In this document: positions 115 to 4,207 of the stretch, one piece after another
How positions within the stretch are numbered: the first letter of the stretch is position 1
Layout: every line of letters starts with the position of its first letter
IMG/VR virus record: IMGVR_UViG_3300011952_000019
Reading direction: 5' to 3' (one strand)
DNA length: 4,207 nt
From: a virus
Taxonomy: Duplodnaviria; Heunggongvirae; Uroviricota; Caudoviricetes
The notes under the pieces: model-generated
Databases searched by the model: none
What the model was told of the DNA's origin: nothing
The model's input: only the letters and a program-made list of their open reading frames with translations
Translations under genes and position numbers: made by a program

Positions 115-700
115 ATGAACACTCTCGCAAATATTCAGGAACTCGCGCGCGCACTGCGCAACATGATTCGCACCGGCGTTATCGTCGAAACCGACCTTAA
201 CGCCGGTCGCTGCCGTGTGCAGACCGGCGGCATGTGTACCGACTGGCTGCAGTGGCTNNNNNNNNNNNNNNNNNNNNNNNNNNNNNNNNNNNNNNNNNNN
301 NNNNNNNNNNNNNNNNNNTTATTCCGGCGATAATCCCGCGCCGTCTGCGTCGGCGGGTGCCCTGCATATCCGTTTCCCTGACGGGGCGGTGATTGAGTAT
401 GAACCCGAAACCAGTGCGCTCACGGTAAGCGGAATTAAAACGGCCAGCGTGACGGCTTCCGGTTCTGTTACTGCCACTGTGCCGGTGGTCATGGTGAAAG
501 CGTAAACCCGCATCACCCTGGACACACCGGAGGTGGTCTGCACCAACAGGCTGATTACCGGCACGCTGGAAGTGCAGAAGGGCGGGACGATGCGCGGCAA
601 CATTGAACACACCGGCGGTGAACTCTCATCAAACGGTAAGGTACTGCATACCCATAAACACCCCGGCGACAGCGGCGGCACAACCGGGAGTCCTCTATGA
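115..700 (+). CDS. V: Baseplate assembly / central spike protein V (P2 gpV family), disrupted here: interrupted by N-gap 258-318 and carrying an in-frame TAA at 503-505 (possible pseudogene or sequencing error)
   Basis: N-terminus MNTLANIQELARALRNMIRTGVIVETDLNAGRCRVQTGGMCTDWLQW matches P2 gpV. After the gap the frame-2 reading YSGDNPAPS...VPVVMVKA, TAA, then TRITLDTPEVVCTNRLITGTLEVQKGGTMRGNIEHTGGELSSNGKVLHTHKHPGDSGGTTGSPL continues the gpV C-terminus to TGA 698-700. Stop overlaps the W start (ATGA). Confidence 0.85.
258..318. other. Run of 61 N (assembly gap or masked bases) inside gene V
   Basis: Directly visible. The V frame before the gap (codons starting at positions 1 mod 3) and after it (2 mod 3) do not join across 61 nt, so the true missing length differs from 61. 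Confidence 0.99.
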
Positions 701-1044
701 CAGCGCGTTATCTCGGAATGAATCGCAGTGATGGCCTGACGGTCACTGACCTTGAGCATATCAGCCAGAGTATCGGCGATATCCTGCGCACACCGGTCGG
801 CTCACGGGTGATGCGCCGTGATTACGGCTCCTTGCTGGCGTCCATGATTTACCAGCCCCAGACCCCGGCGCTTGAGTTGCAGATTAAGGTCGCCTGTTAC
901 ATGGCGGTGCTGAAATGGGAACCCCGCGTCACCCTGTCATCCGTCACCACGGCGCGCAGCTTTGACGGGCGAATGACGGTCACGTTAACCGGCCAGCACA
1001 ACGACACCGGCCAGCCACTTTCGTTAACCATCCCTGTGAGTTGA
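697..1044 (+). CDS. W: Baseplate wedge protein W (P2 gpW; T4 gp25-like family)
   Basis: 115-aa ORF, MTARYLGMNRSDGLTVTDLEHISQSIGDILRTPVGSRVMRRDYGS..., recognisable as gpW; size and position are right. GGGAG at 686-690 sits 6 nt upstream of ATG 697; the start overlaps the V stop. Confidence 0.95.
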   Translation: MTARYLGMNRSDGLTVTDLEHISQSIGDILRTPVGSRVMRRDYGSLLASMIYQPQTPALELQIKVACYMAVLKWEPRVTLSSVTTARSFDGRMTVTLTGQHNDTGQPLSLTIPVS

Positions 1045-1048
1045 AACC

Positions 1049-1957
1049 ATGCCGATTATCGACCTGAACCAGCTACCCGCACCGGATGTGGTCGAGGAGC
1101 TGGACTTTGAAACCATTCTTGCCGAACGCAAGGCGACACTGATTTCCCTTTACCCGGAAGACCAGCAGGAGGCGGTCGCCCGTACCCTGACGCTGGAATC
1201 TGAGCCTCTCGTCAAACTGCTGGAGCAAAATGCTTATCGTGAGCTTATCTGGCGTCAGCGTGTGAATGAGGCCGCACGGGCGGTGATGCTGGCCTGTGCT
1301 GCCGGTAATGACCTTGATGTGATTGGTGCCAATTACAACACCACACGCCTGATTATCACCCCGGCAGATGATTCGACCATCCCGCCGACACCGGCAGTGA
1401 TGGAGTCTGACACCGATTATCGTCTGCGTATTCAGCAGGCGTTTGAAGGTTTAAGCGTCGCCGGGTCGGTGGGTGCCTATCAGTATCATGGTCGCAGTGC
1501 CGACGGGCGTGTCGCGGATATCTCTGTCACCAGTCCGTCTCCGGCCTGCGTCACCATCTCTGTGCTGTCACGTGAAAATAACGGTGTCGCATCCGAAGAC
1601 CTGCTGGCGGTGGTGCGTAACGCCCTTAATGGCGAGGACGTCAGGCCGGTGGCCGACCGAGTGACCGTGCAGTCTGCCGCCATTGTTGAATACCAGATAA
1701 ACGCCACGCTGTACCTTTACCCTGGTCCCGAAAGCGAACCCATCCGCGCCGCCGCCGTGAAAAAACTGGAAGCATACATCACGGCACAGCACCGGCTGGG
1801 GCGCGACATCCGTCTGTCTGCCATTTATGCCGCCTTGCATGTGGAAGGCGTGCAGCGTGTCGAGCTGGCCGCACCACTGGCCGACATTGTGCTCAACAAT
1901 ACGCAGGCGTCTTTCTGTACCGAATACCGCGTCGTGACCGGAGGCTCGGATGAGTGA
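1049..1957 (+). CDS. J: Baseplate assembly protein J (P2 gpJ; T4 gp6-like family)
   Basis: 302-aa ORF beginning MPIIDLNQLPAPDVVEELDFETILAERKA..., recognisable as gpJ. Starts 4 nt after the W stop; the 3' end overlaps the I start by 8 nt. Confidence 0.95.
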   Translation: MPIIDLNQLPAPDVVEELDFETILAERKATLISLYPEDQQEAVARTLTLESEPLVKLLEQNAYRELIWRQRVNEAARAVMLACAAGNDLDVIGANYNTTRLIITPADDSTIPPTPAVMESDTDYRLRIQQAFEGLSVAGSVGAYQYHGRSADGRVADISVTSPSPACVTISVLSRENNGVASEDLLAVVRNALNGEDVRPVADRVTVQSAAIVEYQINATLYLYPGPESEPIRAAAVKKLEAYITAQHRLGRDIRLSAIYAALHVEGVQRVELAAPLADIVLNNTQASFCTEYRVVTGGSDE

Positions 1958-2480
1958 TTCGCGCCTGCTGCCGACCGGCTCATCACCGCTTGAAGTCGCC
2001 GCCGCAAAAGCCTGTGCGGAAATTGAAAAAACGCCGGTCAGTATTCGTGAGCTGTGGAACCCGGATGCTTGTCCGGCAAATCTGCTGCCGTGGCTGGCGT
2101 GGGCGTTTTCGGTTGACCGCTGGGATGAAAAGTGGCCGGAAGCAACAAAACGCGCCGTTATCCGCGATGCGTATTTCATTCACTGCCATAAAGGCACTAT
2201 CGGTGCAATCCGGCGTGTGGTGGAGCCGCTCGGCTATCTCATTAACGTAAAGGAATGGTGGGAGACAAACGACCCGGCCGGAACCTTTCGCCTTGATATC
2301 GGCGTACTGGAAAGCGGTATCACGGAAGAGATGTATCTGGAAATGGAACGGCTGATTGCCGATGCCAAACCCGCAAGTCGCCACCTTATCGGTCTGAACA
2401 TTATCCAGGACATTCCCGGCTATCTGTATACAGGCGGTGTGGTCTGTGATGGTGATGTTATTACTGTTTATCCCGGATAA
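1950..2480 (+). CDS. I: Baseplate / tail protein I (P2 gpI)
   Basis: 176-aa ORF MSDSRLLPTGSSPLEVAAAKACAEIEKTPVSIRELWNPDACPANLLPWLAWAFSVDRWDEKWPEATKRAV..., recognisable as gpI. GGAGG at 1940-1944 sits 5 nt before ATG 1950, which lies inside the J 3' end. Confidence 0.95.
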   Translation: MSDSRLLPTGSSPLEVAAAKACAEIEKTPVSIRELWNPDACPANLLPWLAWAFSVDRWDEKWPEATKRAVIRDAYFIHCHKGTIGAIRRVVEPLGYLINVKEWWETNDPAGTFRLDIGVLESGITEEMYLEMERLIADAKPASRHLIGLNIIQDIPGYLYTGGVVCDGDVITVYPG

Positions 2481-2490
2481 GTGAGAAACA

Positions 2491-4207
2491 ATGAGCACGA
2501 AATTTAAAACCGTTATCACTACTGCCGGAGCCGCAAAGCTGGCAGCCGCCACTGTCCCCGGCGGGAAAAAAGTAAACCTGTCTGCAATGGCCGTGGGTGA
2601 TGGTAATGGCAAATTGCCGGTGCCGGATACCGGTCAGACGAAGCTGGTGCATGAGGTCTGGCGTCATGCCCTGAATAAAGTCAGCGTGGATAATAAGAAT
2701 AAAAACTATATCGTGGCTGAACTGGTTGTTCCGCCCGAAGTGGGCGGCTTCTGGATGCGTGAGCTTGGTCTGTATGACGATGCCGGAACACTGATTGCGG
2801 TATCCAACATGGCAGAAAGCTATAAGCCAGAACTGGCTGAAGGCTCCGGACGTGCGCAGACCTGCCGCATGGTTATTATTCTCAGCAACGTGGCGTCCGT
2901 TGAACTGAGTATTGATGCCAGCACGGTGATGGCGACGCAGGATTATGTCGATGACAAAATCGCAGAGCATGAGCAGTCCCGCCGCCATCCTGACGCCACG
3001 CTGACAGAAAAAGGTTTTACTCAGTTAAGCAGTGCAACAAACAGCACCAGTGAAAAGCTGGCGGCAACGCCAAAAGCGGTCAAGGCTGCGAATGACAACG
3101 CAAATTCACGTCTGGCGAAAAATCAGAACGGTGCAGATATCCAGGATAAATCAGCTTTTCTGGACAATGTTGGCGTTACCAGCCTGACGTTTATGAAAAA
3201 CAATGGCGAAATGCCGCTTGATGCTGATCTGAATACGTTTGGTCCTGTTAAGGCTTATTCAGGTATCTGGTCTAAAGCAACATCCACCAACGCAACACTG
3301 GAGAAAAATTTCCCGGAAGATAATGCTGTCGGTGTGCTTGAGGTTTTTGCTGCCGGCAATTTTGCAGGTACGCAACGCTTTACCACGAGAGACGGCAATG
3401 TATACATGCGTAAACTCGCCAATAAGTGGAATGGCACTGATGGTCCGTGGGGCGTATGGCGTCACACTCAATCTGCTACCCGCCCTTTGAGTACGACTAT
3501 AGACCTGAATACGCTTGGAGCCGCCGAGCATCTTGGTTTATGGCGTAACAGTAGCTCAGCTATAGCTTCATATGAACGCAATTATCCAGAGGAAGGCGGC
3601 TTTGCTCAGGGGATGCTTGAGATCCTCGAAGGCGGAAATTATGGAAGAACGCAACGTTATACCACTCGCCGTGGAAATATGTACGTCCGCTGCCTTGCGG
3701 CAAGCTGGGATGCATCAAATCCGCAGTGGGAACCGTGGTTAAGAGTCGGTCATCAGTCAGAGAGTCGTTATTACGACGGGGATTTGAATGATGTGACTTC
3801 ACCAGGTATTTACAGCGTTACAGGTAAAGCGAGCAACGGTCCAATACTGGATGGAAACGGCGTGACAGTCCTCGGTATTCTGGAAGTGTTGAGGCGCTTT
3901 GATGGTGTTAACGTATGGCAGCGTTATACAACTGCCGGAACAGGTACAACCCTTAAAGGTCGCACGTTTGAGCGCGTTTTTACCGGCAGCTCATGGAGCG
4001 AATGGCGGGAAGTTTACACATCTTATTCACTTCCCCTGAATCTGGGTATCGGCGGCGCAGTAGCAAAACTATCCAGTCTGGACTGGCAGACCTACGATTT
4101 TGTGCCGGGCAGTCTGATAACCGTTCGGCTTGATAATATGACCAACATTCCCGACGGTATGGACTGGGGCGTCATTGATGGCAACCTGATAAACATCGCA
4201 GTTGGTC
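2491..4207 (+). CDS. H: Tail fibre protein H (P2 gpH family), 5' part only; open to the window end with no stop
   Basis: ATG 2491 lies 10 nt after the I stop. Frame 1 is open for 572 codons to position 4206. N-terminus MSTKFKTVITTAGAAKLAAATVPGGKKVNLSAMAVGDGNGKLPVPDTGQTKLVHEVWRHALNKV... is the conserved baseplate-proximal domain of P2-type tail fibres, followed by GFTQLSSATNSTSEKLAATPKAVKAA and repeat-rich distal sequence. Absent from the ORF track only because it lacks a stop in the window. Confidence 0.93.
   Translation, partial: MSTKFKTVITTAGAAKLAAATVPGGKKVNLSAMAVGDGNGKLPVPDTGQTKLVHEVWRHALNKVSVDNKNKNYIVAELVVPPEVGGFWMRELGLYDDAGTLIAVSNMAESYKPELAEGSGRAQTCRMVIILSNVASVELSIDASTVMATQDYVDDKIAEHEQSRRHPDATLTEKGFTQLSSATNSTSEKLAATPKAVKAANDNANSRLAKNQNGADIQDKSAFLDNVGVTSLTFMKNNGEMPLDADLNTFGPVKAYSGIWSKATSTNATLEKNFPEDNAVGVLEVFAAGNFAGTQRFTTRDGNVYMRKLANKWNGTDGPWGVWRHTQSATRPLSTTIDLNTLGAAEHLGLWRNSSSAIASYERNYPEEGGFAQGMLEILEGGNYGRTQRYTTRRGNMYVRCLAASWDASNPQWEPWLRVGHQSESRYYDGDLNDVTSPGIYSVTGKASNGPILDGNGVTVLGILEVLRRFDGVNVWQRYTTAGTGTTLKGRTFERVFTGSSWSEWREVYTSYSLPLNLGIGGAVAKLSSLDWQTYDFVPGSLITVRLDNMTNIPDGMDWGVIDGNLINIAVG
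3226..4060 (+). repeat. Three tandem protein-level repeats of about 92-93 aa within the distal part of tail fibre H
   Basis: Units start at 3226, 3502 and 3781, each opening with DLN(T/D)...G.(Y/W) and containing G.LE(V/I)...(T)QR(F/Y)TT(R/A).G..Y.R...W...W: EKNFPEDNAVGVLEVFAAGNFAGTQRFTTRDGNVYMRKLANKWNGTDGPWGVW / ERNYPEEGGFAQGMLEILEGGNYGRTQRYTTRRGNMYVRCLAASWDASNPQWEPW / ...GVTVLGILEVLRRFDGVNVWQRYTTAGTGTTLKGRTFERVFTGSSWSEW. The units are diverged at DNA level. Confidence 0.6.

Follow-up and report, generated by a model that had tools for sequence, protein, structure and literature searches.

A mid-fibre array of three tandem pyocin-type knob domains in an L-413C-type P2-like tail fibre, probably an accessory and exchangeable module

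The closest structurally described counterparts of the repeats considered here are the fibres of the Pseudomonas aeruginosa R1 and R2 pyocins (6CL5, 6CL6, 6CU2; PMC6116203), which contain two knob domains and terminate in a lectin-like foot. The structural neighbours that Buth et al. 2018 (PMC6116203) named for the pyocin knob, by PDB code or fibre, are five: 5EFV, 5M9F, T4 gp34, 6EU4 and the R2 fibre itself; and a more recent atlas of tail fibres counts 'Pyocin knob' among the mobile pseudo-domains (PMC12143355). Among P2-like phages, the H tail-fibre protein of Yersinia phage L-413C has been described, in the account of Garcia et al. 2008 given in PMC7460101, as a P2-like N-terminal stretch of 207 aa and a P2-like C-terminal stretch of 137 aa that enclose a mosaic middle. 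The only experimental mapping of host range that we found for a P2-like H protein concerns phage P88, in which a swap of aa 716-746, towards the C-terminal end, altered host range (PMC5285337).

The DNA analysed here (the window) is a stretch of 4,207 nucleotides from a virus of the Caudoviricetes (IMG/VR record IMGVR_UViG_3300011952_000019), in which genes V, W, J, I and H follow one another in the order seen in P2 (Table 1). The product of the last of these begins with the tail-collar fibre domain that characterizes the N-terminus of the P2 gpH family, followed by a rod segment that also matches the tail fibre S of phage Mu (PDB 8ju3/5yvq). Both of these Pfam families lie upstream of aa 244-520, and the Pfam scan of H assigned no family to that region; a scan of H with the NCBIfam HMMs returned zero families, and one with PHROGs only generic 'tail fiber' families. 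The units of about 92 aa that fill this region are not further copies of PF03406, which covers a single stretch on their 5' side. Short ORFs of 51-90 aa, found between 3239 and 3802 in other frames or on the minus strand, were not taken as genes; they fall inside the well-supported coding frame of H.

Table 1. Features of the 4,207-nucleotide window (nucleotide positions count from its first letter; aa numbering is that of H)
Feature	Position	Strand	Remarks
Gene V	115-700		P2-type tail operon; interrupted by an N run at 258-318
Gene W	697-1044		P2-type tail operon
Gene J	1049-1957		P2-type tail operon
Gene I	1950-2480		P2-type tail operon
Gene H (tail fibre)	2491..4207	+	ATG at 2491; first 572 codons, ORF open at window end
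N-terminal tail-collar fibre domain of H, aa 1-151	2491..2943	+	Pfam PF12571, E 2e-57; baseplate-attachment part, conserved with P2 gpH
Single Phage_fiber_2 repeat, aa 170-211	2998..3123	+	Pfam PF03406, E 3e-21; rod segment
Knob repeat R1, aa 244-336	3220..3498	+	knob HMM domain aa 245-335, iE 3e-37
Knob repeat R2, aa 337-428	3499..3774	+	knob HMM domain aa 337-427, iE 7e-41; z=33 against R1
Knob repeat R3, aa 429-520	3775..4050	+	knob HMM domain aa 430-517; HHalign E 6e-6 against R1+R2 profile
Start of conserved fourth domain, aa ~528 onward	4072..4207	+	cut by window end; ~100 aa (~528-625) in full-length relatives

An earlier note, made from the sequence alone, had proposed that H contains three degenerate tandem repeats with a shared motif at 3226-4060. 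Self-alignment supports this with significant internal similarity, and the limits that we obtained, 3220-4050, lie within 6-10 nt of those proposed. Smith-Waterman comparison of R1 with R2 gave a score of 181 against 25.9 +/- 4.6 for shuffled sequences, and none of the 1000 shuffles scored as high (z=33). Divergence is much greater in R3: its pairwise scores against R1 (z=4.0) and R2 (z=2.8) were equalled by 2 and 21 of 1000 shuffles, respectively, and in a MAFFT alignment it is 29% identical to R1, compared with 37% for R2. Pairwise comparison of R3 is thus only marginal, and it is at the level of sequence profiles that its homology is established. An HMM built from the R1 and R2 copies of homologues matches R3 in register; alignment of the R3 profile with the R1+R2 profile by HHalign gave a probability of 85% over 68 columns (E-value in Table 1); and a joint knob HMM recovers exactly three domains in H, with the limits listed there. 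The motifs common to the units are DLN..G, G.LEV, QRYTT, G..Y.R and W..W. At the DNA level, Tandem Repeats Finder reported no repeat and identities are no more than scattered when the units are aligned as DNA, so the duplication is old.

The low pairwise scores of R3, together with the mere 7 bits that it receives from the R1+R2 HMM, could be read to mean that the third unit is no true repeat, and that behind two knobs H continues with an unrelated domain whose similarity to them is due to chance or convergence. We regard this as very improbable: the profile-profile alignment is significant and in register across its 68 columns, the DLN, G.LEV, QRYTT and W.EW motifs occupy equivalent positions in R3, the unit shares the five-strand pattern of the others in the structure model described below (pLDDT 73-88), and in the distant homologue P0054 an R3-like unit stands immediately behind an R2-like unit.

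In the predicted monomer, the fold of the units is that of the pyocin knob. The AlphaFold2 model of H aa 236-572 is of moderate confidence overall (mean pLDDT 69, pTM 0.49), with pLDDT values of 70-88 over the three units, each of which displays five β-strands that coincide with the conserved motifs (in R1, GIWSK, GVLEVF, TQRFTT, VYMRKL and RHTQ, with the same pattern in R2). The modelled units have the features that define the pyocin-knob fold, a five- or six-stranded antiparallel β-sheet over which the connecting loops curve, and they are arranged head-to-tail as three contiguous domains behind the PF03406 rod segment. The strands are better conserved than the loops (mean entropy 0.49 versus 0.66, Mann-Whitney p=0.008). 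The structure matches of the model include all five of the neighbours named by Buth et al. (PMC6116203), and Foldseek, as an independent search, placed the R1 and R2 pyocin fibres first (6cl5, E 5e-7; 6cl6, E 1.7e-6). A search of PDB sequences with the repeat profile pointed in the same direction (6cl5, E 6.7e-7; 6cl6, E 3.5e-6; 6ct8/6cu2, E 5.6e-5). On the pyocin fibre the stretch that matches best belongs to Knob2, and Knob1 gives a weaker one; the best stretch of 6cl6, chain positions 139-209, corresponds to approximately residues 458-528 of the fibre, inside Knob2, if the construct carries 3 extra N-terminal residues. In addition, many close homologues bear the NCBI label 'pyocin knob domain-containing protein'. 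Judging from the profile matches and the predicted fold, R1-R3 are pyocin-type knob domains, homologous to the knobs of the pyocins; they are globular domains and not repeats of a fibre shaft.

Identity to the pyocin knobs is only about 20%, H has three knobs and perhaps a fourth where the pyocin fibres have two, and in place of the lectin-like foot it combines a PF12571 N-terminus with a tip of the gpH/gp37_C type served by a gpG chaperone, the tip being known from full-length relatives. The knob 'towers' of staphylococcal receptor-binding proteins (phi11 gp45, 5EFV; phage K gp144, 5M9F; phi812, 9EUF) and the distal domains of T4 gp34 (5NXH) have no detectable sequence similarity to the knobs of H, and the tower proteins belong to a different virion context, as receptor-binding proteins of siphovirus or large-myovirus baseplates.

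Full-length relatives allow the array to be placed within the fibre. The closest of these, from E. coli EcPF14, is 99.2% identical to the window at the nucleotide level across H, a figure that rises to 100% in the knobs; its CDS spans 911 aa, its locus includes the P2-like C-terminal stretch of about 137 aa, and a gpG-type assembly gene lies 3' of H. The H protein of Peduovirus P24C9 is 919 aa long (95.6% nucleotide identity to H of the window). Against a full length of about 911 aa, the knobs would occupy aa 244-520, or roughly 27-57% of the chain. By this reckoning the array is mid-fibre and the receptor-binding tip of H lies outside the window, which cuts the gene short; the location in the distal half of H given by the earlier note reflects this truncation. 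Nor does repeat number, to which that note had tied fibre length and host range, differ among close relatives, as every one examined has three copies.

Comparison with reference P2 (NC_001895) reveals where the two fibres part. In blastn alignments homology extends from gene V to position 3096 of the window (about aa 202 of H) at ~91% nucleotide identity and then ends, with the density of mismatches rising sharply from the bin that starts at 3091. The breakpoint thus lies after the conserved N-terminal domain and inside the PF03406 repeat. P2 gpH (669 aa) shares only these first ~202 aa with H of the window, is ~240 residues shorter than the full-length relatives and yields nothing significant with the knob HMM; the two proteins are not collinear over their whole length. 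The expectation of the earlier note that the repeat region would be the part of the window differing from reference P2 was correct. Conversely, the H protein of phage L-413C (NC_004745, 913 aa) has the same layout as that of the window, with a P2-like segment of ~205 aa, three knobs and the fourth domain, and its Pfam layout is the same as that of the closest full-length relative. Its amino acid identity to H of the window is 100% in the N-terminus, 87% in the linker and 81% in the fourth domain; in the knobs it is 47% (R1), 67% (R2) and 45% (R3). On the basis of this shared organization, H of the window is an L-413C-type and not a reference-P2-type tail fibre.

A segment-by-segment comparison of H of the window with eight P2-like H genes reveals that the knobs have been exchanged as units. 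The N-terminal domain is 98-100% identical in amino acid sequence among these proteins, whereas divergence is concentrated in blocks that differ from phage to phage. In P24E6b and YpM22 only R3 is divergent (74% aa identity, dS 1.45), with dS close to 0 in R1 and R2; in 569R9 it is R1 and R2 that diverge (~81% aa identity, dS 1.0-1.6), with R3 at 99%; and in P24B2 all three knobs are divergent. The edges of these blocks, as traced by mismatch density (~3220-3270, 3750-3775 and 4050), coincide with knob boundaries. Synonymous divergence inside them is saturated, with dS of 0.8-1.6 in divergent blocks and at most 0.2 in neighbouring knobs. R3 is the knob most often swapped between phages, and the Yersinia pestis phage YpM22 and the coliphage P24E6b have one R3 allele in common. 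Because the divergent blocks match the predicted knob boundaries and dS is saturated inside them, whole knobs are evidently swapped by recombination among P2-like phages. Positive selection on the knobs was considered and discarded, since dN/dS in the swapped blocks is only ~0.1-0.2; with dS saturated, such values imply old alleles that have been moved by recombination and not diversification through point mutation.

The array also travels as part of a larger cassette, consisting of the linker, the three knobs and the fourth domain. In the Stf protein of vB_EcoM-613R2 (948 aa) this cassette is 97.5% identical at the nucleotide level, even though the N-terminus is unrelated (only ~26% identity over aa 1-151) and the tip is of the Collar/His-box type. 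In gp37 of approximately 200 T-even phages, including T6, RB32, RB3, PST and EcNP1/Nami, the entire cassette is present and collinear (aa 105-453 of Nami gp37) with ~61% amino acid identity, and the similarity is visible even in the DNA (64-71%); here the gp36-binding N-terminus precedes it, and behind it come a Gp34_trimer-like region and an intramolecular chaperone of the Peptidase_S74 type. One cassette is consequently found with three distal ends: gpH/gp37_C, Collar plus His-box, and Gp34_trimer plus Peptidase_S74. These occurrences, and the whole-knob swaps among P2-like phages, support the suggestion of the earlier note that this region is a module passed between phages by horizontal exchange. 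Of 5426 complete E. coli genomes, 349 (~6%) contain 80% or more of the cassette.

When 1.84 billion proteins were searched with the knob profile, 2095 cluster representatives scored at E<=1e-3, and the stricter limit of E<=1e-10 was reached by 412. Knob copies number 1-8 per protein, with a mode of 3, in the best 150 of the 2095 representatives; a re-scan of these best 150 gave 1-7 copies with a median start-to-start spacing of 95 aa. In the same 150 proteins the arrays typically lie at 0.21-0.64 of protein length, and in only 9 do they reach the last 10%. Across the family, then, such predicted knob arrays are modules that as a rule lie in mid-fibre and vary in copy number. A scan of genome contigs with the single protein yielded zero confirmed relatives, and the taxonomic spread given here is based on phage and E. 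coli collections.

Downstream of R3, the fourth domain behaves differently from the knobs: it is 94-100% conserved in P2-like H proteins, with the exception of that of L-413C, while the knobs vary. It belongs to the cassette held in common with T-even gp37, and its collinearity with Nami gp37 extends as far as the window does. By eye it appears knob-like, and the array may thus have a cryptic fourth knob; comparison with the knob profile by hhalign revealed no sequence similarity (P 0.13), a search of PDB sequences with a profile of the domain gave zero matches, and an AlphaFold2 model made from four fragment sequences has a pLDDT of 34.5 and is unusable.

What the knobs might do is suggested by their position, their variation and the precedent of the pyocins. 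One reading holds that they are the main receptor-binding and host-range region of the fibre, each knob binding a glycan and the combination of alleles setting host range. A host-range role for the knobs would extend to H, by analogy, what has been proposed from the variability of pyocin Knob2, the most diverse part of R-type pyocin fibres, which has been proposed to outweigh the C-terminal lectin domain in determining the killing spectrum (PMC6116203). In agreement with this, no part of the window varies more than the knobs among H proteins that are otherwise 98-100% identical, divergent knob alleles are kept and shuffled, and the loops of the knobs vary more than their strands. The array is, however, mid-fibre and not at the tip; an identical cassette serves three unrelated tips with chaperones of their own, as would be expected of a tip-independent module; the R3 allele of the Y. 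pestis phage YpM22 recurs in coliphage P24E6b; the low dN/dS of the swapped blocks gives no sign of positive selection; and in P88 it was a swap near the C-terminus that changed host range (PMC5285337). We therefore consider it unlikely that the array is the primary determinant, and keep the idea in view since single knobs are replaced independently and pyocin Knob2 provides a precedent; the retention and shuffling of divergent knob alleles could mean that their weight in host range is greater than we have assumed. A related and still more doubtful scenario is one in which every mid-fibre knob of P2-like, Stf and T-even fibres is an independent glycan-binding module, so that the set of knob alleles would encode host range combinatorially, in addition to the tip; the strictly conserved fourth domain, whether a knob in cryptic form or a fold not seen before, would act as the fixed anchor for recombination of the cassette.

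At the other extreme, the knobs may be purely architectural, serving as folding nuclei and rigid spacers of length and register that bind no ligand, with their diversity a product of neutral drift and hitch-hiking. Buth et al. considered the multi-core knob likely to be important in folding of the trimer (PMC6116203), the arrays are mid-fibre in most members of the family, selection within alleles is purifying, and a range of 1-8 copies across the best 150 family members is what would be expected of a module that sets length. This alternative seems possible but not probable, given that recombination breakpoints fall exactly at knob boundaries, that R3 is replaced separately from R1 and R2, that the N-terminus and the fourth domain stay 94-100% conserved in the same P2-like H proteins (L-413C excepted), and that saccharide binding by knob-like domains has been seen in one or more solved structures (PMC6116203). 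In particular, breakpoints at knob boundaries and the independent replacement of R3 suggest selection for new combinations of knobs and not passive hitch-hiking.

Between these, we regard it as likely that the segment at 3220-4050 encodes three tandem pyocin-type knobs midway along a P2-like H fibre of the L-413C type, and that it functions as an accessory, self-trimerizing and exchangeable module. That a length-setting accessory with possible secondary binding is favoured over a primary determinant of host range follows from the sharing of the cassette by three unrelated tips, the R3 allele common to the Y. pestis phage and the coliphage, the mid-fibre location of the array and the mapping of host range in P88 to aa 716-746 (PMC5285337). 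We propose that each unit of ~92 residues in the H homotrimer would form a five-stranded antiparallel β-sheet, the conserved motifs supplying the strands, and that, as in the pyocin structures, three such sheets, one from each chain, would pack around the fibre axis to give a single globular bead. The array would accordingly appear as three, or possibly four, beads in line, with the N-terminal attachment domain and a short rod on one side and, on the other, the distal shaft and the tip, both encoded beyond the window. If so, it would constitute a self-contained trimerizing module to which each unit adds a fixed length. The variable, solvent-exposed loops would probably make secondary contacts of low affinity with LPS or surface glycans, with the primary choice of receptor residing in the C-terminal tip. 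Because the beads are expected to fold independently and are flanked by conserved sequence, whole knobs or the whole cassette are swapped by recombination among P2-like phages, with the Stf fibres of other myoviruses and with T-even gp37 fibres.

Neither the domain nor the architecture is new in itself: knobs of this type and mosaic fibres of this layout are both known, and the protein is essentially identical to annotated RefSeq entries. The analysis does permit a more precise annotation, in which H is an L-413C-type fibre whose aa 244-520 form three pyocin-type knobs and whose tip is not in the window, and it places domain-level boundaries of recombination at ~3096, ~3220, ~3775 and ~4050. 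Such boundaries could guide the design of chimeric fibres for P2/P4 delivery vectors or of retargeted pyocins. For the biology of these phages, the array adds to the well-documented cases in which segments of tail fibres are exchanged as modules.

The chimeric fibre Stf of Escherichia phage vB_EcoM-613R2 combines a divergent N-terminus and two PF03406 (Phage_fiber_2) rod/shaft repeats with the linker, three pyocin-type knobs and fourth domain of the window's tail fibre H, the shared part starting at about the equivalent of window positions 3031-3090. Across the knob cassette the two share 97.5% nucleotide identity. The 613R2 protein terminates in a tip of the Collar/His-box type, similar to the tips found in lambda Stf and T4 gp37. 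Its gene is followed downstream by those for Tfa and a serine acetyltransferase.

Locations of the chimeric fibre and of the domain following knob 3 (L001, EcPF14 prophage locus; L005, vB_EcoM-613R2 locus)
Feature	Window	Other locus	Remark
Stf, Escherichia phage vB_EcoM-613R2		L005:4083-6929	948 aa, chimeric fibre
Post-knob-3 domain	4072-4207 and beyond	L001:7582-7900	

The E. coli prophage EcPF14 carries an H gene 99% identical to that of the window; however, its match to the window begins only at 2051, inside gene I, its J gene is only about 64% identical to the window's and its V is shorter (EcPF14 region L001:4862-5561). Together these observations indicate that the same fibre gene occurs with a different baseplate gene set, and sequence comparison places the putative breakpoint between EcPF14 and the window inside gene I, at about 2051. 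A second, small mosaic block is seen at window 3091-3150 (H residues ~201-220), within the rod/linker that immediately precedes the knobs. It occurs as two alleles, namely NDNANSRLAKNQNGADIQDKS in the window, EcPF14, P24E6b and 613R2, and YDNAEKRMQKDQNGGDIPDKG in the Peduovirus P24C9; the same divergent block is present here in YpM22 and ph899, with 17 mismatches in that 60-nt bin.

Gene V of the window is interrupted by a run of 61 N (258-318). In P2 and P24C9 the matches flanking this run are 111 nt apart (window 257/319 corresponds to 951/1063 of the P2 locus, L003, and to 1717/1829 of the P24C9 locus, L004), and the masked stretch is therefore not length-preserving. The V reading frame appears broken, the ORFs at 115-333 and 533-700 lying in different frames, and the N run has the appearance of an artefact of masking or assembly rather than biology.

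The post-knob-3 domain is 94-100% identical across the P2-like H proteins except that of Yersinia phage L-413C (81%), and the three knobs in these proteins vary by 20-40%. It found no match in PDB or Pfam, and its AlphaFold model (pLDDT 34) gave no usable fold. This domain may be a fourth knob in cryptic form, or it may serve the cassette as its fixed recombination anchor. In P0029, a partial E. coli homologue, a PF03406-like shaft repeat (…IPGVNIAGNQNTSGNAATATKLKTARKISGVAFDGS) directly follows knob 3 and the fourth domain is absent; thus, the latter is not obligatory.

The best representative match of the knob profile, P0056 (1300 aa), contains two separate knob triplets (residues 217-488 and 721-992); within this single fibre, the three-knob cassette itself seems to have undergone duplication. 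The cassette is also plasmid-borne at 35 of the 465 places where it is matched in E. coli genomes, as in the 47-kb E. coli plasmid record NZ_CP064105.1 (hit H165; 97.4% identity), and such plasmid records may represent phage-plasmids.
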